Shown here: one piece after another, positions 310 to 38,872 of the stretch
Position numbering within the stretch: the stretch's first letter is position 1
How the letters are laid out: each line of letters opens with the position of its first letter
NCBI GenBank assembly: GCA_013153515.1
Contig: JAADEI010000009.1
Coordinates: 1 to 49,446 of the forward strand
DNA from: Chlorobiota bacterium
GTDB taxonomy: Bacteria > Bacteroidota > Bacteroidia > JAADEI01
Direction of reading: 5' to 3'
DNA length: 49,446 nucleotides
Made by a program: the position numbers and the translations under genes
The notes under the pieces: model-generated
Databases searched by the model: none
Told to the model about the DNA's origin: nothing
What the model saw: the letters and a program-made list of their open reading frames with translations, nothing else

Positions 310-2001
310 CTATTCCACTTTCCACAGTGCGGATAATCCGAGGAGGTTGACGAGATGTTGTGCAATGAAGCGTATTGATTTCTTTTCGTGATAGATAGCA
401 TGCTGAGTGTTAAATCCATAGAAGACGACCGGGACCCGCTGGTCATAGGCGTAAGGAGTTCCGTGAGTTGTTCCTGTTTCTGCATAGCCTTCATACCAAC
501 CGGGTTTCAATAAGAACCATATATCGCCGCATCTTTCGGGGTCAAAGGACCTGATGAGGTAAGGAGGAGCCTGACGGAGAAGTATTTCTTTTCGGGTCCA
601 TGCGTTTAGGACCTGTGGTTTATTAACCAACCATTGGCGGGCTGCTTCCAAGGCTATATCATAGAAATCGCCTAACTTCTGGCGGTCTAAATATACCCAT
701 TGGTTCATTATTGCCAAAACATTTTTAGGATACTTCTTTCGTCTTTTCCTTTTAGAACGGGAGGGTTTTGACTCAACTTCCTGAAGTAATACAGGCATAG
801 GCTTTATTATCTCTTCCAGTATTTTTTTGTGTATAAAAGCGTTTAATTCTTCTTGCCATATTTTGAATGAGTCTTGCGTGAGTAGTCCGGCGTCTATGGA
901 AAGGCTATCTCTTGCAAATTTCCAATTTTCCGCTACGCCGTGGTCGGAAGTTATGATAAGCAAATAGTTTTCAGGACCTATGGACTCATCAAGGAAATCA
1001 ATAAAGTTTCCGATGAGGCTGTCCAGTCGGACATACACGTCCAAGAGTTCAAGGGACCGTGGACCAAAGTAGTGTCCCACTATGTCTGTTGAAGAAAGAC
1101 TTATAGCAAGAAGGTCGGTGATAGAATCTTTACCGAGTTTCATTTGTTTAACTGCCTGTTTGGCGAAATCAAGGGTTATAGCATTTCCCCAAGGTGTTGA
1201 ACCAATTGTGCCGGGTATTGACGATATGGCATCCATTATGTCATAAGGGAACTCAGGCACTTCTTTAAAGGGAGACCTTTCATAAGGGCTGGGGTCGTAT
1301 TTATCACGCAGATGGTGGAGTTTAGGATGGAGACGCCATTTTTCAGGGACGAAGTATGCGGCGTGTGCCTTTTGATTGTAGTCTTTTACCCATTGGGGGA
1401 GGTCTGGTGCGTAATAGGAACTGGTTGTCCACTGTCCTTGAATGAAGTCGTACCAGAATGCGAAGTCTGCTTTTTTACCGCCGGATAGTATAGCACTTCT
1501 GTCTTTTAGGGAGATGGCGACCACTTTGGACTGTGGATTTCGCAATTTAAGCAGGTCGCCCACTGTTGGAACCCTTAGATTAGCAGGGCTATAGCCCTTG
1601 TCATCTGGTTCGCCCCACACTTTTTTATGGATGGAATCATCCACTGCATAGACCTTTGTTTTTCTGATGGGGTCAAACCATTTGTTTGCAACTATTCCAT
1701 GTATTGCAGGAGAGGTTCCGGTGAAGATTGTGGCGTGACCTACTGCTGTGAAGGTTGGCACATGGTCGTGATATACGTTATCATAAACCATTCCTTTCTC
1801 AAGCAGTTTCTTGAATCCGTGTTGCCACAGGTGTTGCCATCGCCATAAATAATCGGCTCTCATCTGGTCAATGACCATCACTACAACCAGTCGTGGCTTG
1901 TCGTGCGAAACAGAATTAACTTTTTCCACGTAATTTTTGTTATGATTACAGGAAACAAGATAAACCAGAGCCGTGACCAGTAAAACAAAACCCAATCTCA
2001 T
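310..2001 (-). CDS. pafA: Alkaline phosphatase superfamily lipoprotein, PafA type
   Basis: Motifs IDQMR, PTFTAVGH (Thr nucleophile), ANKW, SLKDR, STDIVGH, TSDHG, GTTHG. Start moved from 2130 to ATG 2001 because MRLGFVLLVTALVYLVSC is a lipoprotein signal and a -7 box lies at 2007-2014. Confidence 0.88.
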   Translation of the reverse strand: MRLGFVLLVTALVYLVSCNHNKNYVEKVNSVSHDKPRLVVVMVIDQMRADYLWRWQHLWQHGFKKLLEKGMVYDNVYHDHVPTFTAVGHATIFTGTSPAIHGIVANKWFDPIRKTKVYAVDDSIHKKVWGEPDDKGYSPANLRVPTVGDLLKLRNPQSKVVAISLKDRSAILSGGKKADFAFWYDFIQGQWTTSSYYAPDLPQWVKDYNQKAHAAYFVPEKWRLHPKLHHLRDKYDPSPYERSPFKEVPEFPYDIMDAISSIPGTIGSTPWGNAITLDFAKQAVKQMKLGKDSITDLLAISLSSTDIVGHYFGPRSLELLDVYVRLDSLIGNFIDFLDESIGPENYLLIITSDHGVAENWKFARDSLSIDAGLLTQDSFKIWQEELNAFIHKKILEEIIKPMPVLLQEVESKPSRSKRKRRKKYPKNVLAIMNQWVYLDRQKLGDFYDIALEAARQWLVNKPQVLNAWTRKEILLRQAPPYLIRSFDPERCGDIWFLLKPGWYEGYAETGTTHGTPYAYDQRVPVVFYGFNTQHAIYHEKKSIRFIAQHLVNLLGLSALWKVE

Positions 2002-4231
2002 AGGTACAAAGATAACACTAAAAGAGGCAGAGGAGCATCTGAGTGAGGAGGAGCGTCGTGAAGTCCGCAAGCGATACAGGGCATTGCTTAAAGCAATAAA
2101 GAAATCGGGTAATAATACGGACATACGCACTGTTGGGAAGGCTTTGCGGGTGGCTATGAAAGCCCACAGGCATCAACGCCGTAAAAGTGGAGAGCCATAC
2201 ATATACCATCCCTTGCAGGTGGCAACCATAGTCGCTGAAATAGGGCTTACGGACACAACATCTATTGTTGCTGCTCTCCTGCACGATGTGGTTGAAGACA
2301 CTGACCTGACCCTTGAAGACATATCTCAAATGTTCGGCACAACAGTTGCCGAGTTGGTGGATGGGCTGACAAAAGTTAGTAAGTTATCGCACAGTGCAGT
2401 AATTATGCCACATTTGGAAACGTATCGTAAAATTTTGCTTGCATTAGCCAAAGATGTCCGAGTGGTTATTATTAAAATAGCCGACCGTTTGGACAATATG
2501 CGGTCTCTGGATGCATTGCCCGAACATAAAAGGGTCAGGATTGCTATGGAAACAAGATATTTATATGCTCCATTAGCCCATCGGCTGGGACTCTATTCCA
2601 TAAAAACAGAACTTGAAGACTTGGCACTGAAACACTTAAATCCCAAACAGTATTACGAAATAGAAAAATGGGTTAAGAAAAACAAAGAGAAATGGGAGAA
2701 AATTCTAAATCGGTTCGTCAGACAGTTAAGGATTTATCTACGCAAGGCTGGATATAACAATTTTACTATTGAAAAACGCATAAAGGCGATTTCTTCCATA
2801 TATGACAAACTGGTTCGTAAAAAGGACGAAGGAATAACACTAAACGAGATTTATGATGTGCTGGCGGTAAGAATAGTTTTAGATGTCCCGCCTGAAACGG
2901 AAGATGTTGCCTGTTACGATGTTCTGAGAGTGGTTCATAAACATTTTCCTCATATCCCAGACAGGGTGCGAGATTGGATTTCCCATCCCAAAGCAAATGG
3001 TTATCAATCGTTGCATACCACGGTTATTGGTCCTGAAGGAAAACACATTGAGGTTCAGATTAGGTCTGTCCGGATGCACGAAGTTGCAGAAAAAGGCATT
3101 GCCGCCCATTGGAAATATAAGCAAGGTGTTTTGAGTGACAAGGTATTAGAAGAGTGGTTTGCACGTGTCAGGGAAATCCTTGCCCATCCGGAAAAGGACC
3201 CGCACCTGTTCCTTGAGGATATGAAACTTAACCTGTTTGACAATGAGATTCACGTGTTCACTCCCAAGGGGGAAATAATAACCCTGCCGAAAGGTGCCAC
3301 GGTGCTGGACTTCGCTTTCCATATACACACACAATTGGGCTATCATTGCATTGGGGCTAAAGTGAACAACAAGGTCGTTGAACCCACTCATGTTTTAAAC
3401 GATGGGGACCAAGTGGAGGTGTTGACTGCCCAGAGCCAGACGCCACAACCTGAATGGCTAACAGTGGTCAAGACCGCCATAGCCAGAAGGGCTCTGAGGA
3501 GATATTTCAGACGGGCAAAGAAAGAACTGATAAATAAAGGGAAAGAGAAGGTAAAGAAATTTTTCGCTGAGAACAATATAAAATTTGTGCCTTCAAATCT
3601 GAAAACTCTTGTTAAATATTTGGGATTTAAAGACGTGAAGGAGTTATACTATGCTGTGGGGCGAGGGGATCTGTCGCTCAAGATGCGAGATGGCTGGAAA
3701 GTGGAAGATGGAAAGTTGATTATAGAAAAACCGTTGACGCTTGAAGAACAACTCAGGATTCAGTTGCACAGTAGCACAATCCAGGAATTTGAAGGAAAAT
3801 CATTTCAAAAATGTTGTACGCCCTTGCCGGGGGATAATATAGTCATTTTTCAACGTGAAGATGGTGCCTTAGAAATCCATCATTCCAGTTGCGAAAAGGC
3901 TGCTGAGTTGCTTGCCCACTATGGAGCACAGATAATCAAGACCAAATGGGAGCCCGATGGAAAAATATCATTTATGATAAGGATTAGGGTTAAAGGCACG
4001 GACAGAAAAGGAGTTGTTTATGACCTGTCCCGAATCATATCAAAAGAATTGGATATGAACATGCAGGGAATTTCCATTGAAAGCGACAGAGGTCAATTCT
4101 CTGGATACATAGACGTTTTTGTATCAAATAGGGAGCAATTAGACAATTTAATCAAACGATTAGAAAAAGTTCCATATCTGCATTCTGTGGAAGTGGCTGA
4201 GGGGCAACTTCTTTGGGCATCAGAGAATTAA
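1973..4231 (+). CDS. rel: Bifunctional (p)ppGpp synthetase/hydrolase (long RSH)
   Basis: RKSGEPY..HP, HD motif LHDVVED, ADRLDNMR, YQSLHT, EVQIR, AAHWKYK, TGS domain (FTPKGE..DFAF), CC/ZFD region, C-terminal ACT domain. Exact start uncertain (GTG 1973). Confidence 0.95.
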   Translation: MTSKTKPNLIGTKITLKEAEEHLSEEERREVRKRYRALLKAIKKSGNNTDIRTVGKALRVAMKAHRHQRRKSGEPYIYHPLQVATIVAEIGLTDTTSIVAALLHDVVEDTDLTLEDISQMFGTTVAELVDGLTKVSKLSHSAVIMPHLETYRKILLALAKDVRVVIIKIADRLDNMRSLDALPEHKRVRIAMETRYLYAPLAHRLGLYSIKTELEDLALKHLNPKQYYEIEKWVKKNKEKWEKILNRFVRQLRIYLRKAGYNNFTIEKRIKAISSIYDKLVRKKDEGITLNEIYDVLAVRIVLDVPPETEDVACYDVLRVVHKHFPHIPDRVRDWISHPKANGYQSLHTTVIGPEGKHIEVQIRSVRMHEVAEKGIAAHWKYKQGVLSDKVLEEWFARVREILAHPEKDPHLFLEDMKLNLFDNEIHVFTPKGEIITLPKGATVLDFAFHIHTQLGYHCIGAKVNNKVVEPTHVLNDGDQVEVLTAQSQTPQPEWLTVVKTAIARRALRRYFRRAKKELINKGKEKVKKFFAENNIKFVPSNLKTLVKYLGFKDVKELYYAVGRGDLSLKMRDGWKVEDGKLIIEKPLTLEEQLRIQLHSSTIQEFEGKSFQKCCTPLPGDNIVIFQREDGALEIHHSSCEKAAELLAHYGAQIIKTKWEPDGKISFMIRIRVKGTDRKGVVYDLSRIISKELDMNMQGISIESDRGQFSGYIDVFVSNREQLDNLIKRLEKVPYLHSVEVAEGQLLWASEN
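2007..2014 (-). promoter_or_regulatory. Bacteroidota -7 promoter element TATCTTTG for pafA
   Basis: Matches TAnnTTTG; 5 nt upstream of ATG 2001. Confidence 0.65.
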
Positions 4232-4270
4232 ATTCACTTTACACTAACCTTCCATTTAAATCAGGAAATA

Positions 4271-4278
4271 TAATTTTG
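4271..4278 (+). promoter_or_regulatory. -7 promoter element TAATTTTG for fur
   Basis: Matches TAnnTTTG; 4 nt upstream of GTG 4283. Confidence 0.65.
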
Positions 4279-4282
4279 CAGA

Positions 4283-4753
4283 GTGAAACCGAAATTTGAT
4301 TTTGAGGAGGTTAAACAGGTAGTGGAAGATTGTTTGAGAAGGAAGGGTCTTCGTAAAACATCCGAGAGATTTCACATCTTAAAGCACATTTACGAAAGAG
4401 GCGGACACTTTGACGCAGACACTCTCTACGTTGAACTGAGGAACAAAGGGATTAATGTTAGCCGAGCAACCGTATATAATACTCTTGATTTGTTTACTAA
4501 ATGTGGCATTTTAACTTCCCTCTTTTTTACGCCCCATCACATTGTTTACGATTTCAGTTATAAAGCTAAGCAACATGAACATCTCTATTGCGAAGTGTGT
4601 GGGAAAATAGAAGAATTCTGTGATCCAAGGCTTAGTATCATAGAAGAAGACGTTCAGAAACTCACGGGATTTAAGATAATTAAGAGAAATGTCGTTTTTA
4701 GAGGAATCTGTTCGGAATGCCAGAAAAAGATGCAAGAGAAATCAGAGAAGTGA
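4283..4753 (+). CDS. fur: Fur-family transcriptional regulator
   Basis: GLRKT.ER, HFDAD, VSRATVYNTL helix, HEHLYCEVCG and C-terminal CSEC zinc ligands. Confidence 0.9.
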   Translation: MKPKFDFEEVKQVVEDCLRRKGLRKTSERFHILKHIYERGGHFDADTLYVELRNKGINVSRATVYNTLDLFTKCGILTSLFFTPHHIVYDFSYKAKQHEHLYCEVCGKIEEFCDPRLSIIEEDVQKLTGFKIIKRNVVFRGICSECQKKMQEKSEK

Positions 4754-4857
4754 TTTTTTTTAACACAACGTTGCACAAAGTTTAGTCGGAAGCTACAGAG
4801 TGACCGTATAGATTCTATGGGCTGTTTTTCTTCTGCCTTATTTGTATCAATCATTCC

Positions 4858-4865
4858 TATGTTTG
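4858..4865 (+). promoter_or_regulatory. -7 promoter element TATGTTTG for iaaA
   Basis: Matches TAnnTTTG; 4 nt upstream of ATG 4870. Confidence 0.65.
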
Positions 4866-4869
4866 CAAT

Positions 4870-5793
4870 ATGAGTTGGAAGATTGTTATTCATGGAGGGG
4901 CGGGAAATATAACGCCCGAGCGGATTGGGGACAGGGAAGAGGCTTATAGGCAAGCGTTGACGGAATGTGTTATGGCTGGTGCCGAAGTTCTCAAACAAGG
5001 GGGCAGTGCTATTGATGCTGTCGTGGTGTCTGTAAAAGCCCTTGAGGACAACCCTTTATTTAATGCTGGAAAAGGCTCCGTTCCCAATGAAAAAGGCATT
5101 GTTGAGATGGATGCCGCTGTAATGGACGGCAAAACGTTGAATGCGGGAGCTGTAACGATGGTAAAACATATTAAAAATCCTATTCTTCTGGCTCTGAAAG
5201 TTATGCAAGAAAGTGAACACGTACTATTGGGTGGGGAGGGTGCTGAAGAATTCGCTCTGGAACAGGGCTTTGAATTGGTTGAGAACAGATATTTTATCAC
5301 CGAAGAAAGATGGAAGCAATATGTAAAAAAATTCCTATCCGAACACAAAAAAGTTGTAGAGATTAATTCCCTTGGGACAGTTGGCTCTGTTGCAGTTGAT
5401 AAAGATGGAAATGTTGCAGCAGCCACAAGCACAGGAGGGCTTTTGTTTAAGCACATGGGACGGATTGGCGACACGCCACTGATAGGGGCAGGCACTTATG
5501 CCGACAACGAAGGGGCTGCTGTTTCTACAACCGGCTTGGGAGAATTCTTTATTCGCACCACCACCGCTTTTCAAATCAATATACTAACCAAATTTGGAAC
5601 GCCAATCGCTGAAGCAGTCAGGAAAGTGCTGCAACAAGTTAAGACACTTGGTGGCACAGGGGGTGTCATTGCTATCAATAAAAACGGCGAACATGTGATT
5701 GACTGCGTGAGCCCGGGGATTTTTTCTGCTGTGGCGAAAGAAGTAGGCAACTATATTGAATCTAAAACCTTCTTATATAAACACGATTTATAA
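4870..5793 (+). CDS. iaaA: Isoaspartyl peptidase/L-asparaginase (Ntn hydrolase)
   Basis: IHGGAG, FNAGKGS, EMDAAVMDG, autocleavage site GTVG, ATSTGG, GRIGDTP, TGLGE. Confidence 0.92.
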   Translation: MSWKIVIHGGAGNITPERIGDREEAYRQALTECVMAGAEVLKQGGSAIDAVVVSVKALEDNPLFNAGKGSVPNEKGIVEMDAAVMDGKTLNAGAVTMVKHIKNPILLALKVMQESEHVLLGGEGAEEFALEQGFELVENRYFITEERWKQYVKKFLSEHKKVVEINSLGTVGSVAVDKDGNVAAATSTGGLLFKHMGRIGDTPLIGAGTYADNEGAAVSTTGLGEFFIRTTTAFQINILTKFGTPIAEAVRKVLQQVKTLGGTGGVIAINKNGEHVIDCVSPGIFSAVAKEVGNYIESKTFLYKHDL

Positions 5794-5973
5794 TTGTCAA
5801 CCGCTATAAACTTGTTATAAACACGTTCGTGCATTTCTTTTGACTTGCCAGATAAGATGTAGCACAGGCACTTATGTTAATGAAACAATATCCCACTTGT
5901 TTAGTGTTGTAAATAACAAATGTTGAACTTATGCGATATGAAAAGCAAGAAAACGACTTAAAATCCACGAGCC

Positions 5974-6966
5974 ATGAATGAAGAGAAACAAACGCCTGAG
6001 AGGGTTCGCTGCTTAATACTTGGAGGAGGGCCTGCTGGCTACACTGCCGCTATCTATGCAGCCCGGGCTGGCTTGGAACCTGTTGTGTATGAGGGTCCGC
6101 AACCTGGCGGGCAATTAATGCTAACCACTGACGTGGAGAACTATCCGGGCTACCCGGAAGGGGTTCAAGGTCCTCAAATGATGCAGGATTTCAGGAAACA
6201 AGCAGAGAGGATGGGTGCCGACCTTAGGTATGGGATGGCTACGGAAGTTGACTTTAGTGGACCACCGCATAAAGTCATTATTGATAAGACGAAGGAGATT
6301 GTTGCCGATGTGGTCATCATAGCCACCGGGGCAACCGCCAAGAAGCTGGGCTTGGAATCCGAGGAGCGTCTGTCAGGCAAAGGGGTTTCCTATTGTGCTG
6401 TTTGCGATGGATTCTTTTTCAAGGGTCAGGAGGTTGCCGTCATTGGTGGTGGCGACACTGCTTGCGAAGATGCTCTTTATTTATCACGGATCTGCCCAAC
6501 TGTCCACATGCTCGTGCGTAGGGACCAAATGAGGGCATCTAAGGTGATGCAAAAACGGGTGTTTAATACGCCGAACATAAAGGTTCACTGGAACACCGTG
6601 GTTGAGGAATTCCTTGGGGAAAACGAGTTGGAAGGCATCAAGGCAAGAAACGTTAAAACAGGCGAAACATTTATTTTGCCGGTGAAAGGGGCATTTATTG
6701 CCATTGGACACAAGCCTAACTCAGAAATTTTCAAGGGTTGGGTTGAGATGGACGAAGACGGATACATTAAAACAACACCTGGCAGAACATTCACTAACGT
6801 GGAGGGGGTTTTTGCCGCTGGAGATGTCCAAGACAAGATCTATAGGCAGGCTGTAACGGCTGCCGCCACTGGTTGCATGGCTGCCCTTGACGCTGATAGG
6901 TATCTGGCTGCTAAGGAGGCGGAAGAAAGCGAGGAAGTTGAGGCACAACAAGAAGGAAACGCTTAA
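5974..6966 (+). CDS. trxB: Thioredoxin-disulfide reductase
   Basis: GGGPAGYTAA, GGQL, VENYPG, redox CAVCDG, GGGDTA, FAAGDV..YRQA. Confidence 0.96.
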   Translation: MNEEKQTPERVRCLILGGGPAGYTAAIYAARAGLEPVVYEGPQPGGQLMLTTDVENYPGYPEGVQGPQMMQDFRKQAERMGADLRYGMATEVDFSGPPHKVIIDKTKEIVADVVIIATGATAKKLGLESEERLSGKGVSYCAVCDGFFFKGQEVAVIGGGDTACEDALYLSRICPTVHMLVRRDQMRASKVMQKRVFNTPNIKVHWNTVVEEFLGENELEGIKARNVKTGETFILPVKGAFIAIGHKPNSEIFKGWVEMDEDGYIKTTPGRTFTNVEGVFAAGDVQDKIYRQAVTAAATGCMAALDADRYLAAKEAEESEEVEAQQEGNA

Positions 6967-6984
6967 TTTATACTACGACAAACT

Positions 6985-8428: not shown

Positions 8429-8507
8429 TACACAATGCCCTTCTTAGCCTCGTCAAAGTTGATAACAGTAAATTGCCCTAATTTTAGCCTTGAAAACAAC
8501 GTTTAGA

Positions 8508-11871: not shown

Positions 11872-11879
11872 GTCGCTTT

Positions 11880-12320: not shown

Positions 12321-12326
12321 TGCTTA

Positions 12327-13855: not shown

Positions 13856-14047
13856 ATGTGTAACGTAGGAGGCATAGACAGATGGTTGAGGATAATTCTC
13901 GGATTGATCTTAATTGGTGTTGGATACTATTTAGAAAAGAATTGGATCGTAATTGGGATTGGAGTCATTTTACTGCTTACTGGAATTATCAAATTTTGCT
14001 TGATTTACAAGATTTTAGGGATATCTACTTGCCCAAATAAGAGCTAA
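13856..14047 (+). CDS. DUF2892/YgaP-like small membrane protein
   Basis: NVG.IDR.LRIILG, two hydrophobic helices, FC..Y.ILGISTC. Confidence 0.88.
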   Translation: MCNVGGIDRWLRIILGLILIGVGYYLEKNWIVIGIGVILLLTGIIKFCLIYKILGISTCPNKS

Positions 14048-14060
14048 CGTTTCCTTGCTT

Positions 14061-14092
14061 TTTGGTAGGTGAATAACTTTCCGCTATCTTTG
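14061..14092 (+). promoter_or_regulatory. Full Bacteroidota housekeeping promoter TTTG-N20-TATCTTTG
   Basis: -33 TTTG at 14061-14064, 20-bp spacer, -7 box at 14085-14092, then an A-rich leader to ATG 14113. Confidence 0.75.
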
Positions 14093-14112
14093 TAATAAAC
14101 TTACAGCTAAAC

Positions 14113-16023
14113 ATGAGGTCTTTTTTCTTTCTTGTGGGGGGAATCGTTCTATATTCAACTGTTCTGTTTGCTCAACAAGATGGTAATAGAGGGTGCGGAA
14201 CAATCCTACCACCTCCTTTCATTGATTTCCTCAAAGAAAAACCCTATAAACACCTAAGAAACTTTGATTTAACAACAACATATTGGGTTCCAACAACCGT
14301 ACACATAATCTGTAAAGATGATTCCTCTGGCTGCTATCCATTAATTCCTTTCTTTCAGAATATGTGTGAAGCTCAAGCTTCTTTTCAACCTGCAAATATC
14401 CAATTCTTCTTCCCCAATTTTTTTCAAGATATTAAATATCACTATTCTACTGATGCATGGTCCAACAATAACAATGCCTTAGGGACCCTAATTGATAATG
14501 CTATGGTTCCAGAAAGGATGGACATGTTTATAATGGGTAATGGAGATGCTTGCGGCGTTACGGTTTGCGGTTGTGTTAACTGTTGTGTCTTTGATGCCAT
14601 AACCTTGAATCCTGCGTGTGTGGGACCCAATAACACCACTATTCAGCATGAGGTGGGACACTGGCTTGGGCTCCCCCATCCTTTTGATGAAGGGTTCTCT
14701 GGATGTAGAGAGTGTGTTGACCGTTCCAATTGTGAGGTTTGTGGTGATATGTTTTGCGATACAGAAGCCGACTATTTGAACTACCGATGGCAATGCCCTT
14801 ACACAGGCAACATGACTGAACCCACCAATTGCCCTGCCCCAATAGAAACGATAAACCCGGACCCCACTCTCTACATGTCCTATGCCTCAGACCACTGCAC
14901 AAACAGATTCACCGGAGAACAGATTCTCCACATGAGAGCACTCATCCAAACCGGACTTAACTCCTCTCAATATGGGAATTGGTATAGCAGAACATGGATT
15001 CAAAACTATTCACCCTCTATCTCAGACACTATCATTTGGAATGATACAGTTCTTTACAGTGGCAATACACGCCACATTGCTACTTCAGGACATATGTTAG
15101 TTTGGCGAAAAGTAAAAAATGCTTCTCATTACTTGGTAGAGGCAATCGGTTCAAGCTTTATCAGGGATTGGATCGTGGCTGATACTATCACTTTCATTCC
15201 TCAGCTGCCCGCCAATGACATAGTTACCATTTATGTCAAACCACTTAACTCCGCATATTTCTGCAGTCCTGCAAAACAATTTCAGGTAAGAACATCATTT
15301 ATGGGAATAAGGTTTTCAATAGACACACCCCGATGCAGTGGGAAAGCCACGATCAATTTCACTGTACTGAATGATACCTCTAAGGGTCAATTGATGATTT
15401 CCAATATTGCTACGCAAAACTTTAGCATTTTAAAACCTATAGAGGTTGATTCGGAAGGTTTCCATAAATTCTGGATTTTCAATGTTTATGCAGACAGCGT
15501 GTTCGCATGGGTTTACGTACCACACATCAGCACCAAAGTGGAAATAACCAATATCCAAGACCAGAACGACTCCCTAAAAGCAAACATTGCTCTTTTGCCG
15601 GCAGATTCTAATGAACAAATAACCTACACATGGATACTGCCTTCCGGCAAAGAAATATCCAGTTCAGATGCATTAGCAATACCAAAAACTGAATCAGGAA
15701 CATACACACTAATTGTAACAACATCAGAAGGATGCTCAGACACCCTACAAAGCTTTTACCAACTGCCTGCAAACTCAAGTCCACCCAGAGCATGGGTTAA
15801 ACAATCGGAGGATGGTCAATTGGAGCTCATTATAAAAGGTTCAGAATCCTTCTCTTTTGAAGCAAAAATCTTCTCTAACGACGGAAAACTGGTATATCAA
15901 TTTTCAGGGACATACCCCGAAAACAACACAATGGCTTTACCCCACTTAGCACCGGGAGTATATACCTTAAGCTTCACGTCCACAAACAAGCCTGAATTTA
16001 GAAGTAAATTTATAGTAAAGTAA
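14113..16023 (+). CDS. Secreted M43 (pappalysin/ulilysin-like) zinc metalloprotease with T9SS type A sorting domain
   Basis: Signal peptide, RGCG cysteine switch, HEVGHWLGLPH, Met-turn YMSY, C-terminal IFSNDGKLV..LAPGVY..KFIVK. Confidence 0.85.
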   Translation: MRSFFFLVGGIVLYSTVLFAQQDGNRGCGTILPPPFIDFLKEKPYKHLRNFDLTTTYWVPTTVHIICKDDSSGCYPLIPFFQNMCEAQASFQPANIQFFFPNFFQDIKYHYSTDAWSNNNNALGTLIDNAMVPERMDMFIMGNGDACGVTVCGCVNCCVFDAITLNPACVGPNNTTIQHEVGHWLGLPHPFDEGFSGCRECVDRSNCEVCGDMFCDTEADYLNYRWQCPYTGNMTEPTNCPAPIETINPDPTLYMSYASDHCTNRFTGEQILHMRALIQTGLNSSQYGNWYSRTWIQNYSPSISDTIIWNDTVLYSGNTRHIATSGHMLVWRKVKNASHYLVEAIGSSFIRDWIVADTITFIPQLPANDIVTIYVKPLNSAYFCSPAKQFQVRTSFMGIRFSIDTPRCSGKATINFTVLNDTSKGQLMISNIATQNFSILKPIEVDSEGFHKFWIFNVYADSVFAWVYVPHISTKVEITNIQDQNDSLKANIALLPADSNEQITYTWILPSGKEISSSDALAIPKTESGTYTLIVTTSEGCSDTLQSFYQLPANSSPPRAWVKQSEDGQLELIIKGSESFSFEAKIFSNDGKLVYQFSGTYPENNTMALPHLAPGVYTLSFTSTNKPEFRSKFIVK

Positions 16024-16064: not shown

Positions 16065-16080
16065 TGGCACATGTTTTGCA
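16065..16080 (+). promoter_or_regulatory. Sigma54 (-24/-12) promoter TGGCAC-ATGTT-TTGCA
   Basis: Exact match to TGGCAC-N5-TTGCW, intergenic, 75 nt upstream of the revised start. Confidence 0.7.
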
Positions 16081-16123
16081 TTGCCTATGACCCGAACATA
16101 GAAAATAATAATGCGATGAGACC

Positions 16124-16131
16124 TATCTTTG
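16124..16131 (+). promoter_or_regulatory. -7 promoter element TATCTTTG upstream of the propeller gene
   Basis: Matches TAnnTTTG; followed by an A-rich leader to ATG 16155. Confidence 0.55.
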
Positions 16132-16154
16132 TTAAAAAAGGAAAATATCCTTTG

Positions 16155-17567
16155 ATGAAAGTGATGAAAGCGATAGTAAGTGTTATTTGCGTGGTTGCCA
16201 TTACGATTAGTGCCATGGGTCAAACCAAGGGTCGTCGTCCTAAAGCTAAACGAATCAATTCACAATTTTCCATAAAAATTGAAGGATATGATGCTTTCGT
16301 AAACAAATTAATTGCCACGAGGGATGGCGGAGCCCTACTCTTAGGCTACATCCAGAAGGAAGGCGGTCAACAAAAAGCAATAGCGATCAAAACCCTTGGG
16401 AACGGTCGGATTCTTTGGGCGAAAGAAATTAGCACTGGCGGGAATGCCCAATTGTGGGATGCCGGCTTGACCAGAGAGGGCTATCTTCTCTGCGGATTCA
16501 CTCAATCAGGTAACAACTCAGATGCTCTGCTTGTCCTGCTTGATTTCCGAGGAAATCCCAGATGGGTCAAAACAATTGGATCTTCTGCCGACGAAAAGAT
16601 TTTTGATATGTTCATTACCCGAACTCTTGATTTTATATTGCTTGGCATGACGAGCAGTGGCGTTGGGAAAGGAGACGTCTTAGCCATCAAAATCAATTCC
16701 AAAGGCGAACTACAATGGGCTAAGGCATTGGGCTCAACAGAACTGGATATAGCATATAATGGAGTTCAATTGCCAGACAGAGGATTCTTGTTTGCAGGAT
16801 ATACACGCAGCTTTACAGACAACGGCAATTGGGACGTGATGCTTCTCAAAACAGATCCGAACGGCTTGGTTGAATGGATTCAAACGTTTGGCACCGACAA
16901 AAATGAAACAGCAAGATCCATTGCTTTAACGAAAGATGGAGAGATAATTCTTTCTGGATTCACCCTCGGAGGAGGACACGGTTTCTGGGATGGATTCCTT
17001 GCAGTGACAGATCTTAATGGCAATTTGAAATGGGCAAAAAGTATAGGAACTTCCGGAGATGATAGGCTTTACGACGTAACTCTAACATCTTCGGGAGAAA
17101 TAGCACTTGCGGGACAAATGAGTGGCTTGAGCCCCATCGGATCAGCATCCCTACTTTTGATGGACAGGCAAGGCAACTTGGAATGGGCTAATGTGTATGC
17201 CGGTAACTCATTCCTTGGCGTCGGGACATATAAAGACAGTGCCCTCACCGGAGCAGGAGATGTCTATTCAACCGGACGAACCTACACACTATGGGCTCGG
17301 GTTCCTTACAAAGGCAAACTTAAGTGTCAAAACGATTCCATTCAGCCATCAGTAAAAGACCTAAACTTCAATTCCTTGCTTGGGCTCTTTGAAGCCACAC
17401 CTCTAACCCTCACAGAACGTCCATTGTCTGTCCAACCAGAAGACCTCACTGTCAAGATAGAAGACCTATGTGCCGAAAAATCTAAAACAGGCAAAAAAAC
17501 CAAAACAAGAACTTCATCGCAACGCGGAACTACCGATAAGAAAACCACCGTTCCAGTTAAAAAGTAA
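16155..17567 (+). CDS. Exported beta-propeller-type repeat protein with basic termini
   Basis: Signal peptide MK(VMK)AIVSVICVVAITISAMG; about 7 repeats of ~50 aa ending D..G...W.K..G. ORF-track start 16071 lies inside the sigma54 box, so ATG 16155 (or 16164) is preferred. Confidence 0.75.
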   Translation: MKVMKAIVSVICVVAITISAMGQTKGRRPKAKRINSQFSIKIEGYDAFVNKLIATRDGGALLLGYIQKEGGQQKAIAIKTLGNGRILWAKEISTGGNAQLWDAGLTREGYLLCGFTQSGNNSDALLVLLDFRGNPRWVKTIGSSADEKIFDMFITRTLDFILLGMTSSGVGKGDVLAIKINSKGELQWAKALGSTELDIAYNGVQLPDRGFLFAGYTRSFTDNGNWDVMLLKTDPNGLVEWIQTFGTDKNETARSIALTKDGEIILSGFTLGGGHGFWDGFLAVTDLNGNLKWAKSIGTSGDDRLYDVTLTSSGEIALAGQMSGLSPIGSASLLLMDRQGNLEWANVYAGNSFLGVGTYKDSALTGAGDVYSTGRTYTLWARVPYKGKLKCQNDSIQPSVKDLNFNSLLGLFEATPLTLTERPLSVQPEDLTVKIEDLCAEKSKTGKKTKTRTSSQRGTTDKKTTVPVKK

Positions 17568-19953: not shown

Positions 19954-20532
19954 CTACTCTTGCTTTCCTTCGCCTTCCTCTGAGGCTTGTGGCTCTTGTG
20001 ATTCCTGTTCTTTGGGAGCCTCGGAAGGTTCAGAGGAGGGTTCCTCTTGAACTTCGTTTGGAAATTCCTGAGCCACCTCTTGCATTTCATCTACCTGCTC
20101 AGCACTTTCTACCGATGCTTCCGCTTCCTCTACAATAACCGTGGCTTCAACCTTTTCGGGAACATACTTCTCTTTCTCAACAACCAAAGGTCTAAACTTC
20201 TTCTGAGTTTTAAGCCACTCGCTAAACTTCTTAAAGGCTTCTTCCCTTGTGTGAACACCTTTTTCAACACCTCTGAGCAGGAACATAAGATGATAGACCC
20301 CCGCTCGTCGCATAATGTGTTCAGCGGTTTCCGACGGTTGAGCCCCTTTTTTGAGCCACTCAATCGCTTTTTCGTGGTCTATTTCTATGATTGGAATTTC
20401 CGTGTTTGGGTCATAAACACCCAATTTCTCAATAAACCTGCCATCTCGTGGAGCCCGTGAATTAGCAACCACAATCCAGTAGAAGGGTCTTTTCCGTCTT
20501 CCGTGCCTCTGTAATCTAATCCTTACTGGCAT
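19954..20532 (-). CDS. rpsP: 30S ribosomal protein S16 with acidic C-terminal extension
   Basis: [43 protein letters not shown]. Confidence 0.97.
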
Positions 20533-20556
20533 ATTGCTTCTTCCGTTTTTGTTCTA

Positions 20557-20564
20557 CAAAGTTA
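20557..20564 (-). promoter_or_regulatory. -7 promoter element TAACTTTG for rpsP-rimM
   Basis: Matches TAnnTTTG; 24 nt upstream of ATG 20532, with an A-rich leader. Confidence 0.65.
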
Positions 20565-23085: not shown

Positions 23086-23374
23086 CACCTTCGCCTTTTT
23101 CCTGAACCATTTGAACCAATTCATACTGTGCTTGTTTATGTGGTTTTAGAAATACAAATTTACGAGGGACTGGGTCATACCCACCTTCATTAAACGGATT
23201 ACACCTAACAATTCTGTGTATGGTCAACCAAAGCCCTTTAAGAGCACCGTGTCTCTGGATGGCTTCCAACCCATAGGTTGAACAAGAGGGATGGAATCTG
23301 CAGGAGGGCGGTAGCATTGGAGATATGAATCGCTTGTAAAACTTAATAAGCCCTATAAGTAACTTTGACAGCAT
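23069..23374 (-). CDS. yidD: Membrane protein insertion efficiency factor YidD
   Basis: Y..FISP..P.SCRF.PSCS.Y..EAI..HG..KG, RCNP...GGYDPVP. Start 23374 or 23386, not 23578. Confidence 0.92.
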
Positions 23375-23393
23375 CTTAAAATGCATAATTTTG
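23364..23393 (+). promoter_or_regulatory. Promoter TTTG-N18-TAATTTTG for the DUF4159 gene
   Basis: -7 box at 23386-23393; TTTG at 23364-23367 lies inside yidD on the opposite strand. Confidence 0.6.
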
Positions 23394-24148: not shown

Positions 24149-24156
24149 TATTTTTG
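24149..24156 (+). promoter_or_regulatory. -7 promoter element TATTTTTG for the YceI gene
   Basis: Matches TAnnTTTG; 17 nt upstream of ATG 24174. Confidence 0.55.
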
Positions 24157-24173
24157 CAATAAAGAAACAAGGA

Positions 24174-24818
24174 ATGATAAGATGGTATGTGCTAACTCTG
24201 GGCATCTCATTTCTCTTATGGAACTGCACGCCCTCTCAGGAAAACGACACAGAACCCACAACTCAAACAACAAGCGAACCATCCACTTGCTACTATGAAC
24301 TGGACACACAATCCCCACAAGTGAAATGGACTGCTTTCAAAACAACAGAGAAAATCGGCGTTGGCGGAACTTTTGACAGCGTCCTTTTTTCTTTTCCCAC
24401 AACAGAAGCAGAATCAATTGCACAATTAATCCAAGACATCGAAGCAACTATCTACACAGTCAGCATCAACAGTGGAGACACAGGCAGAGATGCCCGAATC
24501 AGACAATTCTTCTTCGGCATAATGAACGCCCCAGATGTCATAAGCGGTAAAATCCTTGAAGTGTCCAACGACACAGTATTCATAGACATTGAGATGAATG
24601 GCATCAGCAAAAAAGTCCCCTTCTCTCTACAATATGAAAATGACACACTTGTCCTAACAAGCACAATCAACCTTGCCGATTGGGAAGCACAGGAATCAGT
24701 CAAATCGCTTAACCAAGCCTGCTACGACCTGCATAAAGGAGCAGATGGCATTAGCAAACTATGGGAAGAGGTAGACATCTCAATAATTGCAGTCATTAGA
24801 AAAAATTGCAATGTATAA
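24174..24818 (+). CDS. YceI-like lipid/polyisoprenoid-binding lipoprotein
   Basis: Lipobox LWNC, V.WTAFKT.EKIGV.GTF, SINSGD..RD..I, C.DLH.G.DG.SK.W. Confidence 0.75.
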   Translation: MIRWYVLTLGISFLLWNCTPSQENDTEPTTQTTSEPSTCYYELDTQSPQVKWTAFKTTEKIGVGGTFDSVLFSFPTTEAESIAQLIQDIEATIYTVSINSGDTGRDARIRQFFFGIMNAPDVISGKILEVSNDTVFIDIEMNGISKKVPFSLQYENDTLVLTSTINLADWEAQESVKSLNQACYDLHKGADGISKLWEEVDISIIAVIRKNCNV

Positions 24819-27184: not shown

Positions 27185-27202
27185 CGTTTTTCAAATGTTA
27201 AG

Positions 27203-27210: not shown

Positions 27211-27243
27211 CCTCTGAACATTTAAATTGAGAAATAAAAAGAT

Positions 27244-29019: not shown

Positions 29020-29065
29020 CCAGTCCAATGCATAACCCTTCTGTAAAATTCCCTATCAGGAAAAA

Positions 29066-31162: not shown

Positions 31163-31174
31163 AAAAGCCTATCA

Positions 31175-34626: not shown

Positions 34627-34627
34627 C

Positions 34628-35392
34628 TCAACCGCCAAGGTTTTGTTGCAAAAGAAGGATAGTTAATATAAGGGACGTGAATGAGGAGACAAGGGTTAAA
34701 AGGGGCGTTATTTCCCTGAGGACTGCTGGGGCGACCCGTCGGGTTGGTTCCACATATACTATATCGTTTGCTTGGAGGACAACCTGAGCGTTGGGCAGTT
34801 GGCTCACATCTCTCAGATTCACCTGTTTAACCATTGGCTTTCCACCTACCATCCTGATTATCTTGATTTTATACGCCTTATGCATTTGTGGAATCCCGCC
34901 TGCTTTGGCGAGGGCTTCAAAGAGCGTCATGTTATTACGGGGCATTTCAACCGCCTGTGCCTTGTCTTGATAGAAGACGTAAACAAACCTGTTTGTTACT
35001 TCAAGATAGACGTATGGGTCTTTATATAATTGTGAATAGAGTTCAGTGAGCAGTTTGCGAGCCTGAGCGACAGTGTATCCCGCCAAGCGAACAGAGTCAA
35101 TTATAGGCAGATAGACATATCCATTTGGCATTATTTCATACGAGAGGAGTCGTGTTGTTTGCATATTGGTCGCCACATCAACGAGTTGCTGACCTTTCCT
35201 GGGCTGAACGAGGATTTTCAATTTGTCGCCACTGGACAGGACATATTCCTGAGGCACGAGGCTATCCACAAGGAAGGGGTCAACATTTTCAATAAACATC
35301 ACTTCTGGATAAAAAACCTTACATCCAGACATAACTAATGCTATCGCAAGTGTTTGCATCCTTTTTATTGCCCTGTTCTTTCCTGTCATCAC
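34628..35392 (-). CDS. wza: Polysaccharide export lipoprotein (Wza/OPX family)
   Basis: Lipobox MSGC, Y.L..GDKL, G...LPII..V..AG.T, SLBB TLFEALA.AGG, LQ.NDIVYVEP, C-terminal helix. Confidence 0.88.
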   Translation of the reverse strand: MMTGKNRAIKRMQTLAIALVMSGCKVFYPEVMFIENVDPFLVDSLVPQEYVLSSGDKLKILVQPRKGQQLVDVATNMQTTRLLSYEIMPNGYVYLPIIDSVRLAGYTVAQARKLLTELYSQLYKDPYVYLEVTNRFVYVFYQDKAQAVEMPRNNMTLFEALAKAGGIPQMHKAYKIKIIRMVGGKPMVKQVNLRDVSQLPNAQVVLQANDIVYVEPTRRVAPAVLREITPLLTLVSSFTSLILTILLLQQNLGG

Positions 35393-35396
35393 AAAG

Positions 35397-35426
35397 CAAA
35401 ATTAAACTTTTTGTTATAAGGGCAAA
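35397..35426 (-). promoter_or_regulatory. Promoter TTTG-N18-TAATTTTG for wza-wzc-wecA
   Basis: -7 box at 35397-35404 (4 nt before GTG 35392); TTTG at 35423-35426. Confidence 0.62.
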
Positions 35427-36790
35427 GAACGTTTGAGTCTAAAAGTTTGAGGAATAGGATTTTTTGTTCTGGGGGGCGTCCCACTCTTATAGAGCCATCC
35501 AAGGGGAACACCGAGATATTCCACAAGGGCATACTTATCAGAGATTTCCCGAGGAACATTTCCTTTGAGGTATTTCATTGCGTCATCGTAGGAAAGGGGA
35601 ATTCGTTCTGTCAGTGGGGGGTTAGTGAGCAGAGCCGTTGCATGGGCTGGCTTGTTCGTCTCGCAGGCTACTTCCTGACCTATGTATTTAATGGGCAATT
35701 TCCTGACCATCGCTTCAATTTTGTCAAACCATTCTGGAACGATGAATTGCTTGTTTTGGGATTCAATGACCCTATGTTCAAAAGGCAGTTGGTAAGGCAT
35801 TTGGCAATCAAGGGGTTTGAAATCAAATCCACGATATGCATTGACCTGTTTCTCTGGGTTGATGACATCTGTTTTTTGGAACAGAGCGAGGAAGAATCCT
35901 TCACCTTTAACTCTGTGTGGATAGAACCTGTATGTGTGTGCGGAGATTTTAATTCCGTCCCATTCATCAAGCCCTTCCACTATGTTCCATTGGGTCAGTT
36001 CAGGCAGTGGAATTGAACGGACTGCCGAGCCAAACGTATCAATCACCCATTGGGCATTCAGTTCGTTCTCTTCAGGATTGAAAGTGCAGGTTGTGTAAAG
36101 GAAATACCCACCCACTTTGGTTGAGATGAGAGCGTTGGTTATTATTTGACGCTGGATGGCTTGCAGTTTCTTTCCAGTGTTTGGTTTCCAAAACCGCACC
36201 GATTTAGGTTCTTTCCTGAACATTCCTTCGCCAGAACAGGGAACGTCAGAAAGAACGAAGTCAAACTGATTGGGCAAAGTGGCGAATGCACGGCTGTCGG
36301 CACGCATCAATGCTTGGTTGACCTTTCCCCATCGGATAATGTTTTCTTCAAGGGCTGGGTATCGTGCCGGGACTGGTTCGGCAGACACTAAAAATCCTGT
36401 GTCGTTTAACAAACTCAACAGTTGGATGGATTTACCGCCGGGGGCACCACACACATCGGCAACTAACCCGTCTGGCTTGCCAAACCGCTTAAAAACATGA
36501 GACACTATTAGTCCTGAGGGTTCCTGAACATAATAGGCACCACCGAAGAATAGAGGGTCACGCCAAAATTCAGGCTTTTCTTTCAACACAACGGCGTCTG
36601 GGAACCACGGCACCCGACCTTCAACGGAGAAGTGTTCTTCAAGGCTTCTTTGCGTCCACGACCATTTTATGGGATGGGGTCTTATCGCTGTTCTGGGAGA
36701 TTCGTTTAAGGCATCAAGGAAACCTTTGAATTCTTCGCCTAATATCTTCTGCATTCTTTTCAAAAACTGGGAAGGTAAGGGAATAGGCAT
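35414..36790 (-). CDS. RsmB/RsmF (NOL1/NOP2/Sun) RNA m5C methyltransferase
   Basis: YYVQEPS, DVCGAPGGKS, D.PCSGEGMFRK, YTTCTFN..ENE, RFYPH...GEGFF. Confidence 0.9.
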   Translation of the reverse strand: MPIPLPSQFLKRMQKILGEEFKGFLDALNESPRTAIRPHPIKWSWTQRSLEEHFSVEGRVPWFPDAVVLKEKPEFWRDPLFFGGAYYVQEPSGLIVSHVFKRFGKPDGLVADVCGAPGGKSIQLLSLLNDTGFLVSAEPVPARYPALEENIIRWGKVNQALMRADSRAFATLPNQFDFVLSDVPCSGEGMFRKEPKSVRFWKPNTGKKLQAIQRQIITNALISTKVGGYFLYTTCTFNPEENELNAQWVIDTFGSAVRSIPLPELTQWNIVEGLDEWDGIKISAHTYRFYPHRVKGEGFFLALFQKTDVINPEKQVNAYRGFDFKPLDCQMPYQLPFEHRVIESQNKQFIVPEWFDKIEAMVRKLPIKYIGQEVACETNKPAHATALLTNPPLTERIPLSYDDAMKYLKGNVPREISDKYALVEYLGVPLGWLYKSGTPPRTKNPIPQTFRLKRSLPL

Positions 36791-36792
36791 AA

Positions 36793-37491
36793 CTACTTTC
36801 TTTTAGAAAGAAACTTTTCAATTATCAGTTTGGAATTGCTAACATCTCTGACCAACCATTTGAGCAAAAGGTCTGTTTTCTGCTCAGGAGTGAGTTGCCA
36901 CGGCAATTTACTATTATGCAATTGATGAACCAACTGGTAGAGAGTTATGGCAACGCTAACCGAAATGTTATAACTGGTTGTGAACCCATACATCGGGATT
37001 TTAATTGTAAGGTCTGCTGATTCAAAGGCTTCATCAGTTAAACCATCTTTTTCTGTGCCGAACAATAGGGCGACAGGCTCTGTCAGTTCAAAATCGTTTA
37101 GCGAGACAGTGGCATAAGGACTTGTGGCAACAACTTTATAACCATTTTCTTTGAGTTGTTTTGCTACGAAAGAGGGGCTTTCATTAATATGTCTGTGTAT
37201 GTCCACCCACTGCTCTGCACCGAGGGTTACGCCACGAGACACTTCAAACCTGTTCCTGTTTTCAATAGTGTGGATGGTCTGAATTCCCAAGCAATCGCAA
37301 GTTCTAACAGTGGCACTGGCATTCTGCGGTTGATAAATGTCTTCCAGAACGAGAGTGATAAAATAGGTTCGCCATTTGAGGACTTCAATCATCCTGTTGA
37401 ACCTGTCTTCCGTAACGAATTCTTTTAAGTGGTCAATAATCAACTTCTTCTTTTCTATTGATAAGTCTTGCAAAGTTTTTAATATGTCCAC
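36793..37491 (-). CDS. trmH: TrmH/SpoU family RNA 2'-O-methyltransferase
   Basis: LEDIYQPQNASA..RTCD, FGTE..GL, IPMYGF..S.NISV. GTG 37491 preferred over TTG 37629 because a -7 box TAGTTTTG lies at 37506-37513. Confidence 0.85.
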   Translation of the reverse strand: MDILKTLQDLSIEKKKLIIDHLKEFVTEDRFNRMIEVLKWRTYFITLVLEDIYQPQNASATVRTCDCLGIQTIHTIENRNRFEVSRGVTLGAEQWVDIHRHINESPSFVAKQLKENGYKVVATSPYATVSLNDFELTEPVALLFGTEKDGLTDEAFESADLTIKIPMYGFTTSYNISVSVAITLYQLVHQLHNSKLPWQLTPEQKTDLLLKWLVRDVSNSKLIIEKFLSKRK

Positions 37492-37669
37492 TTCTGTTTT
37501 TATGTCAAAACTATTACACAACAGGCAATGCAGAAAGTAGCCAAATTGTCTTTTGTCTTGGGGTAATCTGGCAGTGTTGTAATAAAAATTTTTCAGTTGT
37601 TGTGGCAAAGTGTCGTCACAAATTGACAATGGTTCATAAAACTTGACAAATTTTAATAACTTTTATTTG

Positions 37670-37684
37670 TGGAATGGCTTTTGT
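37670..37684 (+). promoter_or_regulatory. Degenerate sigma54-like promoter TGGAAT-N5-TTGT upstream of hsp20
   Basis: GG-N10-GT spacing; preceded by three TG(A/G)CAA half-sites. Confidence 0.4.
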
Positions 37685-37729
37685 CTATGTGTGTAGCGAA
37701 CAAAACAAAAAACCTAAAATAAGATAGCC

Positions 37730-38158
37730 ATGACGAGAGGATTACCAATGACTTCTGGAAACATTTGGGACGAATTAAACCAAGTGTTGGAAACATTCTT
37801 TGGGAACAAGGACGTGGAGGTCTATAGCGTCCCTGCTGTTAATATAAAGGAATTGCCTGACAGGTTCGTCCTTGAAATGGCAGTTCCGGGATTCAACAAA
37901 GAAGACATTAAGATTGAAGTTGACGACGGCATTTTGGTCGTCAGGGGAGAGAAGAAGGAAGAGGACAAGCAAGAGGAGAAGGGCAGATGGATGAGACGTG
38001 AGTTTCATATCGTCAAGTTCCAAAGGGCATTCACATTGCCCGACATGGTAGATGCCGATAACATCACTGCTAAGTATGAAAACGGCATCTTAATAATCAA
38101 TCTGCCCAAGATCCCAGAGGCTCAGGAGAAGCCTGCCCGTTTAATTAAAGTGGAATAA
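37730..38158 (+). CDS. Hsp20/alpha-crystallin small heat-shock protein
   Basis: PAVNIKE, .PGF.KEDI.I, RREF...F.R.F.LP, A.YENGIL.I.LPK. Confidence 0.95.
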   Translation: MTRGLPMTSGNIWDELNQVLETFFGNKDVEVYSVPAVNIKELPDRFVLEMAVPGFNKEDIKIEVDDGILVVRGEKKEEDKQEEKGRWMRREFHIVKFQRAFTLPDMVDADNITAKYENGILIINLPKIPEAQEKPARLIKVE

Positions 38159-38849
38159 TTTTGCAGTAGCCCCAACCACCCGCTACAGTGCCGGGGTTGT
38201 TCCCTTCATGTGGGGGACGCCCCGGCTTTTTTATTAATATGGATAGATACATTTGCGAATCGTGTAATAAGGCGGTATAGCCGACAAATCGGTCATTGTC
38301 CACAAGGACAGAGGAAGTCCAGAGTTTCCGCACAATGTCTTTAAAACTTTCAGGAACCTTTGTTTCTTGGATAGACAAACACAACACTTTAAAGAACGAC
38401 TTAGGAATTCCACGAGCCAGAAGTATTTTCAAGCCTGCTTCTTTAAGAGACCAGAGGATAGTGAGGCTTTGAAGGAATGGGGCATCGGCAACTGAATCAA
38501 GGGGATGCATAAATCGTCTTCTCACCCTTGCTATTGCGGGATATGGTCTTTGGAGGTCTATCCCAACGGGGTTATGTTGGCTTGTTGCCACCGCACATAA
38601 TCCGTCATCGTGAGTAAAGGAGATTTGAACATTATTTCCGAGTATTGGGCATCCGTTGGCATAGCGAAGTTTGTATATTGAACCGGGATACATCTTATCC
38701 AATAGGGAGAGGCACGTGGCGTGTTGCAACCGCCGTCTATGGTTGGAAATTATGTTTATTTTGCCCAAGCCTTCATATTCGGCAGGTATTTCATTAAGCA
38801 GTTGTGAAATGCCCACCTTGAACAATCCACAATCAATTATTTTCTTCAC
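38145..38849 (-). CDS. 4'-phosphopantetheinyl transferase superfamily protein
   Basis: NG.P, ISFTHD, VGIDLQ, WSLKEA. GTG 38849 preferred over 38939 (avoids overlap with the M28 gene; -7-like box 5 nt upstream). Confidence 0.8.
   Translation of the reverse strand: MKKIIDCGLFKVGISQLLNEIPAEYEGLGKINIISNHRRRLQHATCLSLLDKMYPGSIYKLRYANGCPILGNNVQISFTHDDGLCAVATSQHNPVGIDLQRPYPAIARVRRRFMHPLDSVADAPFLQSLTILWSLKEAGLKILLARGIPKSFFKVLCLSIQETKVPESFKDIVRKLWTSSVLVDNDRFVGYTALLHDSQMYLSILIKKPGRPPHEGNNPGTVAGGWGYCKIIPL
38190..38232 (+). terminator. Rho-independent terminator of hsp20
   Basis: GCCGGGG (38190-38196) pairs with CCCCGGC (38220-38226), with an extended inner stem, followed by T6. Confidence 0.85.
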
Positions 38850-38854
38850 TTCTG

Positions 38855-38872
38855 CGAATATACGTATATTAG
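38855..38872. promoter_or_regulatory. Palindromic back-to-back -7-like elements (TATATTCG on -, TATATTAG on +)
   Basis: Perfect palindrome AATATACGTATATT at 38857-38870 between divergent GTG starts at 38849 and 38880. Confidence 0.5.

Follow-up and report, generated by a model that had tools for sequence, protein, structure and literature searches.

In Bacteroidota with mapped transcription start sites (TSSs), transcription begins 4–5 nucleotides (nt) after a TAnnTTTG promoter box (PMC6847099, PMC9723704). The box of Flavobacterium psychrophilum spans −12 to −5, with a leaderless share of 5.5% (PMC9723704), and 13% of the leaders of Flavobacterium johnsoniae are ≤10 nt long (PMC6847099); in Bacteroides thetaiotaomicron, 3.7% of leaders are <10 nt (PMC7366714). 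Prediction based on the Pribnow box flagged one of 37 Bacteroidetes/Chlorobi genomes, an underestimation that its authors admit (PMC3160421); such predictors missed Bacteroidota because the box differs. GeneMarkS-2 places 90% of Bacteroidetes/Chlorobi in a group with a non-Shine–Dalgarno (SD) ribosome-binding site (RBS), without a leaderless model (PMC6028130). Here, we analyzed a 49,446-nt stretch of DNA from a Chlorobiota bacterium (hereafter the window; GenBank assembly GCA_013153515.1, contig JAADEI010000009.1, positions 1 to 49,446), in which six genes, namely a pafA-like phosphatase gene, fur, iaaA, mgtE, a wza-like gene and a probable PPTase gene, have such a box placed almost directly in front of the start codon. 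The host genome is a 2.2-Mb draft (42% GC, 146 contigs) whose GlyA is 62–68% identical to GlyA from many Bacteroidota orders, and the phylum assignment therefore holds.

Defining d as the number of nucleotides between the end of the TAnnTTTG box and the start codon, we found all six boxes to end 4–5 nt before the start codons, at exactly the positions that a preliminary description, made from the sequence alone, had assigned to them (Table 1). Direct reading likewise upheld its count of four GTG codons among the six starts. The consensus is exact at five of the six sites, and the PPTase box, TATATTCG, carries one mismatch (the TTCG variant). For the M43 peptidase gene, rpsP, yceI, glyA and trmH, spacers of 14–24 nt had been claimed, and we measured d = 20, 24, 17, 16 and 14, respectively. 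Pfam and NCBIfam searches confirmed the gene names of the window with the exception of the PPTase, whose label is weak (its ACPS Pfam match scores 24.1 bits, just below the cut-off of 25).

The window contains no excess of the TAnnTTTG box as such (34 matches versus 46.3 ± 6.5 in shuffled sequences); what matters is where the boxes are placed. Five of these 34 boxes are followed at d = 4–5 by an ATG or GTG that opens a long open reading frame (ORF), where about 0.3 would be expected from the rates at control sites (0.008–0.010 per site; 17/2086 and 15/1501). To extend this count to the whole genome, we took each of the 1501 TAnnTTTG boxes on both strands and recorded, at every distance d, the ATGs that start a frame of ≥100 codons, a measure independent of gene calls. 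For comparison, we used 14 control motifs, 13 of them eight bases long, which comprised single-base variants of the box together with its reversed and reverse-complement forms. Globally, a long-ORF ATG or GTG was present at d = 4–5 for 55 of the 1501 boxes, compared with 12–15 expected. ATGs numbered 22 at d = 4, 20 at d = 5 and 17 each at d = 7 and d = 8; the counts dropped to 5 (d = 9), 2 (d = 12) and 4 (d = 13) before rising again to 24, 42, 36, 26, 29, 23, 23, 16 and 17 at d = 16–24. At d = 4–5, the 13 eight-base control motifs gave only 0–11 ATGs per offset, and the seven-base control TAnnTTG, which contains the box and has 5167 sites, gave 7 and 19. Similarly, GTG was found 7 and 6 times at d = 4 and 5 (controls, 1–4). 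Both the fixed spacing and its excess over chance are thus direct observations.

The spacing between promoter and start codon is bimodal, with a spike at d = 4–5 and a shoulder at d = 6–8, a dip at d = 9–13, which would correspond to leaders of about 5–9 nt, and a hump at d = 16–24. The spike in the genome-wide histogram that the preliminary description had named as support for its proposal was therefore present, and the two initiation modes that it had put forward are supported as two spacing classes. When only the first ATG or GTG within 45 nt of a box was considered (n = 422), 45 starts (11%) were at d = 4–5, 37 (9%) at d = 6–8, 23 (5%) at d = 9–13 and 241 (57%) at d = 14–30; 101 (24%, chance matches included) had d ≤8. 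Among 749 genes with a single possible start, 190 had a box within 300 nt, distributed as 14 at d = 4–5, 29 at d = 2–8, 7 at d = 9–13 and 86 at d = 14–30. The spike is kept in these genes and is therefore not made by choosing the longest ORF. A second group of short spacings (first starts: 9 at d = 6, 15 at d = 7 and 13 at d = 8) survived removal of the second in-frame ATGs of d = 4–5 genes, and by analogy with mapped relatives would imply leaders of about 2–4 nt, or wobble of the transcription start point.

We consider it quite probable that the six sites are ordinary promoters of the Bacteroidota housekeeping sigma factor that yield mRNAs with no leader or with a leader of 0–1 nt. With the box at −12 to −5, as in the mapped relative, a start codon 4–5 nt after it would begin at +1 or +2. 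RNA polymerase would begin at the start codon's first base or one base ahead of it, and the resulting message would have no leader or one of 0–1 nt, its start codon being recognized at the 5′ end and not via the A-rich, SD-less leader of most genes. Leaderless mRNA is the best reading of the data; it takes its TSS from mapped relatives, and translation that depends on the 5′ end, including initiation on GUG, is what we infer from it. On the same analogy, the leadered majority of this genome is predicted to have short leaders, with a mode of about 13–14 nt.

We compared the six loci with those of two genomes of the same genus (G001 and G002) and with more distant relatives. In all 12 comparisons with the congeners, box, spacer length and start codon were kept, and the 20-nt core comprising these three elements was 17–19/20 identical without any insertion or deletion. 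Upstream of fur and iaaA, identity over 63 nt was only 51–70%. These comparisons show directly that the layout is conserved within the genus and that most of the start codons are correct. In pafA, box, spacing and ATG are kept in both congeners, translation from this ATG gives a lipoprotein-type signal peptide (MRLGFVLLVTALVYLVSC), and the protein is collinear with the PafA profile (residues 7–394 on profile positions 7–398). For fur, the TAA of the box is an in-frame stop, making GTG 4283 the first possible start; the 15 nt from 4271 to 4285 are identical in both congeners, compared with only 36–44/63 further upstream, and an internal GTG (codon 14) is not conserved in relatives. The box and d = 4 of iaaA are kept as well (32–35/63 identity further upstream), with Pfam profile position 1 at residue 3 and the conserved HGGAG motif from residue 7. 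The variant box and GTG (d = 5) of the PPTase gene are present in both congeners, and its upstream frame is closed by stops in G002, so that an extension to ATG 38939 is not the PPTase start. Indeed, longer upstream ORFs exist for both pafA and the PPTase gene but are not the gene. As judged from these comparisons, the codon beside the promoter is the real start of iaaA, pafA, fur and the PPTase gene.

In two order-level relatives (L023 in G005 and L024 in G004), a fur GTG occupies the same protein position with a box 25 nt upstream. Thus, fur appears to have switched between the spacing classes while retaining its GTG, being putatively leadered in the order-level relatives and leaderless in the genus.

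Several observations count against leaderless initiation at these sites, and the first of them concern the start codons. At mgtE, both congeners retain the GTG at d = 5, but they also retain an in-frame TTG at 13727-13725 (codon 8, d = 26); a further ATG at 13724-13722 (d = 29) is specific to the window, both congeners having GGA. The mgtE start is therefore ambiguous between GTG and TTG. Downstream ATGs also follow the wza GTG, after A-rich stretches, at d = 37 in the window (35359-35357) and at d = 25 in G001. Of the 25 genome-wide candidates scanned, one, the peptide deformylase (Def), is a false positive, starting at profile position 38 with an internal Met, and by our own reading the likely start of the enolase candidate is an ATG inside its 'box'. 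GTG is a minority start codon here (5/86 leadered unambiguous starts). Furthermore, E. coli is not known to use GUG on leaderless mRNA, and four of the six window starts are GUG instead of the AUG of E. coli-type leaderless mRNAs.

Most of these points could be explained if the starts were mis-called, that is, if the true starts lay downstream behind normal leaders of about 12–30 nt and the codon at d = 4–5 were in frame by chance. We regard this as unlikely. No conserved alternative start exists for iaaA, pafA, fur and the PPTase gene, whose N-termini are fixed by the profile alignments, and the start of a genome-wide candidate, PanD, is upheld in the same way (residues 1–114 on profile positions 1–114). 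The alternatives at wza are not at matching positions in the different species, and no ATG at all precedes the lipobox in G002, whereas the GTG at d = 4 is conserved in both congeners and, read from it, 23 residues precede the lipobox Cys in all three species. The wza GTG is likely the real start, although together with mgtE it remains one of two ambiguous starts among the six. Chance in-frame ATGs lying between a promoter and a start 17–24 nt away are estimated from base composition at about 1.5 per offset, compared with the 20–22 seen, and mis-called starts would not account for the spike among single-start genes (14/190 at d = 4–5).

Leaderless mRNAs also presuppose that the boxes are working promoters. 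We compared three classes of boxes: 55 with an ATG or GTG at d = 4–5, 228 with an ATG at d = 16–24 and 786 without a downstream start. An extended context, directly visible in the sequences, is common to the short-spacing and leadered boxes (relative to the box, T-rich at −16 to −14, A at −9/−8 and C at −2, with CA directly behind the box) and is missing from the 786 no-start boxes. Scoring with a weight matrix derived from the leadered boxes gave medians of 1.30 for short-spacing, 1.82 for leadered (cross-validated) and −1.68 for no-start boxes. Short-spacing boxes differed from no-start boxes (p = 2e-14), and their comparison with leadered ones gave p = 0.08; the 13 short-spacing cases with GTG also differed from no-start boxes (p = 0.001), and the window's five exact sites scored 1.1–3.7. 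Among short-spacing boxes with d = 4, 60% have a T immediately before the start codon, matching the usual start-site pattern of pyrimidine at −1 and purine at +1. Less favorably, a TTTG at the expected −33 position was enriched in neither class, occurring in 9% each of short-spacing and control boxes and in 16% of leadered ones; this element is weak or absent in F. johnsoniae too (PMC6847099). Moreover, the genome-wide promoter support for the TTCG variant is thin (7 and 4 starts at d = 17–18 among 471 sites).

Alternatively, transcription might begin upstream or read through, with TAnnTTTG-N4-5 acting as a translation initiation element or regulator site. This second alternative, which we consider quite unlikely, draws on the arrangement of the genes. 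The genes relA, fur and iaaA are co-directional, and the wza-like gene lies 21 nt after a co-directional rsmB/F-like gene, its box falling within that gap; the gaps before fur, iaaA and wza are 51, 116 and 21 nt. Across window positions 1800–6000, scans for sigma-70-type promoters and terminators gave nothing informative, and the stretches separating relA, fur and iaaA held no terminator-like site. Upstream promoters or read-through could therefore supply leadered isoforms, and co-transcription of wza is possible. Set against this, there would be no reason for a translation element to carry the upstream context of leadered promoters, the spike falls exactly at the mapped distance between box and TSS, and pafA and the PPTase gene are divergent, with no co-directional gene upstream. 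Finally, that the six cases are coincidences among 34 boxes and about 40 genes, to which their selection by eye in the preliminary description and the unremarkable number of boxes in the window might point, is already refuted by the excess in the window and genome-wide and by the spacing kept in 12/12 congener comparisons.

The promoter-proximal class, although well supported, is a genome-wide minority comprising about one in ten box-linked starts. At the gene level, d = 4–5 applies to 46 of all 1665 genes and, among the 713 that lead operons, to 33, figures that favor the short class where both readings are possible. The preliminary description had called the class large, which these counts and the 45 of 422 box-linked starts do not support; the window is richer than the genome average (5 of 14 box-linked genes at d = 4–5; binomial probability ∼0.06, calculated by hand). 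Nor did a metal and stress theme, to which the description's mention of such genes might point, hold up. We scanned 25 of the 50 candidates outside the window, of which 21 had Pfam matches, and found a general mix of mostly housekeeping genes (Apt-like, TsaD, MgtC/DUF4010, PanD, Ddl, cyclophilin, Cas6b, ABC ATPase, NqrB, TrmB, CysRS and others). We therefore rejected a functional bias toward metal or stress genes among the candidates scanned.

The arrangement had also been presented as a trait of this lineage. We compared the spacing shares of three adequately sampled genomes, namely this one, G019 (1.2 Mb) and G014 (860 kb: C2:1-820000 plus 20 kb each of C3 and C4), the latter two from other families of the same class. 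In G019, the distribution has the same bimodal shape, the ATG count at d = 4 (20) is the highest of any single offset, and d = 4–5 accounts for 33 of 162 box-linked starts. In G014, 17 ATGs were found at d = 4–5 compared with 30 over d = 14–30. The same spike with a larger share in both genomes led us to reject a lineage-specific explanation. Samples of G025 (160 kb, 1 case) and G017 (140 kb, 0 cases) were too small to judge. The leadered hump of G014, a genome of 50% GC, is nearly flat (0–4 per offset) next to its ATG spike of 11 and 6 at d = 4 and 5, and leaderless starts may outnumber leadered ones among its exact-consensus boxes.

Genome-wide, GTG is the start codon in 13 of the 55 candidates at d = 4–5. 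Comparing ATG/GTG counts at d = 4–5 with those at d = 14–30, we obtained 37/9 versus 277/33 in this genome (Fisher p = 0.07), 21/12 versus 80/10 in G019 (Fisher p = 0.002) and 17/1 versus 30/12, with no GTG excess, in G014. GTG enrichment was accordingly rejected as a general rule, being significant only in G019, marginal here and absent in G014. A tentative joint reading, which is possible but which we do not favor, would have the leaderless share vary several-fold between families (d = 4–5 at 11% here and 20% in G019, with the spike dominating in G014) and Bacteroidota ribosomes initiate efficiently on 5′-terminal GUG, tolerating it better there than behind an SD-less leader. The latter part is prompted by the four d = 4–5 GTG starts of the window that are conserved across the genus and is suggestive only. 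We found no literature that addresses leaderless GUG initiation in Bacteroidota at the level of titles and abstracts. The conserved GTG cases would offer a simple test of whether 5′-end-dependent initiation in the phylum accepts GUG.

Two of the six genes are part of divergent pairs. A RelA/SpoT-family gene (HD_4, RelA_SpoT, TGS and ACT domains) diverges from pafA, and the one canonical start codon in frame ahead of its conserved N-terminal part is a GTG kept in G001 and G002, which means that the relA and pafA coding regions share 29 bp at their 5′ ends. Within pafA, 33 nt before the relA GTG, there is a conserved TAATTTTTG, the box with one extra base. The PPTase gene is divergent from an M28 peptidase gene, with start codons only ∼30–36 bp apart. 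Its box overlaps the region just upstream of the M28 start, and TATATTAG lies 14 nt before ATG 38886. Between mgtE and the M43 peptidase gene, a gap of 364 bp holds a 63-codon ORF for a small hydrophobic, two-helix-like protein (MCNVGGIDRWLRIILGLILIGVGYY...), which may resemble DUF2892/YgaP-type membrane proteins. Elsewhere in the window, a defence gene adjoining glyA and a TPR protein gene encodes a 1041-aa Type ISP restriction-modification enzyme (Type_ISP_C, N6_Mtase). Another ORF, whose protein has no Pfam match at 1e-5, contains a consensus box in its longest form and may really start at the ATG 23 nt after it. Upstream of a DUF4159 gene, two consensus boxes are arranged in tandem, 26 nt apart.

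Table 1. Promoter boxes, start codons and other features of the window
Feature	Region	Box	Box position	Spacer	Start codon	Strand	d (nt)	Comment
pafA-like phosphatase		TATCTTTG	2014-2007	tacct	ATG 2001-1999	-	5	direct reading
fur		TAATTTTG	4271-4278	caga	GTG 4283-4285	+	4	direct reading
iaaA (Asparaginase_2)		TATGTTTG	4858-4865	caat	ATG 4870-4872	+	4	direct reading
mgtE		TAAGTTTG	13761-13754	tagtt	GTG 13748-13746	-	5	direct reading
wza-like (Poly_export)		TAATTTTG	35404-35397	cttt	GTG 35392-35390	-	4	ATG 35389-35387 follows immediately
probable PPTase		TATATTCG	38862-38855	cagaa	GTG 38849-38847	-	5	variant box
M43 peptidase	14085-14115	TATCTTTG			ATG 14113	+	20	leadered comparator
rpsP	20530-20564	TAACTTTG	20564-20557	A-rich	ATG 20532	-	24	leadered comparator
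yceI-like	24149-24176	TATTTTTG			ATG 24174	+	17	leadered comparator
glyA	40177-40203	TACTTTTG			ATG 40201	+	16	leadered comparator
SpoU/trmH-like	37489-37513	TAGTTTTG	37513-37506		GTG 37491	-	14	leadered comparator
RelA/SpoT-family gene	1973-4231				GTG 1973	+		divergent from pafA
M28 peptidase					GTG 38880 or ATG 38886	+		starts of M28 and PPTase genes within 38847-38888
63-codon ORF	13856-14047					+		between mgtE and M43 peptidase gene
Type ISP enzyme	42099-45224					+		
ORF with internal box	16071-17567	consensus	16124-16131		ATG 16071 (longest ORF) or possibly ATG 16155	+	23 (ATG 16155)	
DUF4159 gene	23360-23393 (tandem boxes)	consensus, two			ATG	+	44 (first box), 18 (second box)	

Leaderless genes of Mycobacterium, Streptomyces and Deinococcus likewise have a promoter element a short, constant distance from the start codon and bimodal leader lengths, and mycobacteria use both AUG and GUG at the mRNA 5′ end. 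In these bacteria, however, another sigma factor and a Pribnow-type −10 element are involved, and the putatively leaderless class is a minority here. Within the phylum, a spacing histogram is a cheap, RNA-free estimate of the leaderless share of a Bacteroidota genome, a share that appears to vary several-fold from family to family. Gene finders that apply a single A-rich 'RBS' to Bacteroidota (PMC6028130) lack a leaderless class for the phylum and may shift such starts downstream or extend them upstream.

The TSS-mapped F. johnsoniae, F. psychrophilum and B. thetaiotaomicron resemble this genome in combining a −7 TAnnTTTG box with a leadered, SD-less, A-rich majority and a minority without leader. 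The share found here (11% at d = 4–5, or 24% at d ≤8) is at or somewhat above the 3.7–13% given in those maps, which measure RNA ends, whereas our class is derived from spacing, so that the shares are not the same measure. What sets this locus apart from the TSS-mapped Bacteroidota is the presence of four conserved GTG starts in a single window. The finding reveals no new mechanism; the layout is real, conserved and statistically solid, and constitutes a further case of the minority class already known in the phylum.

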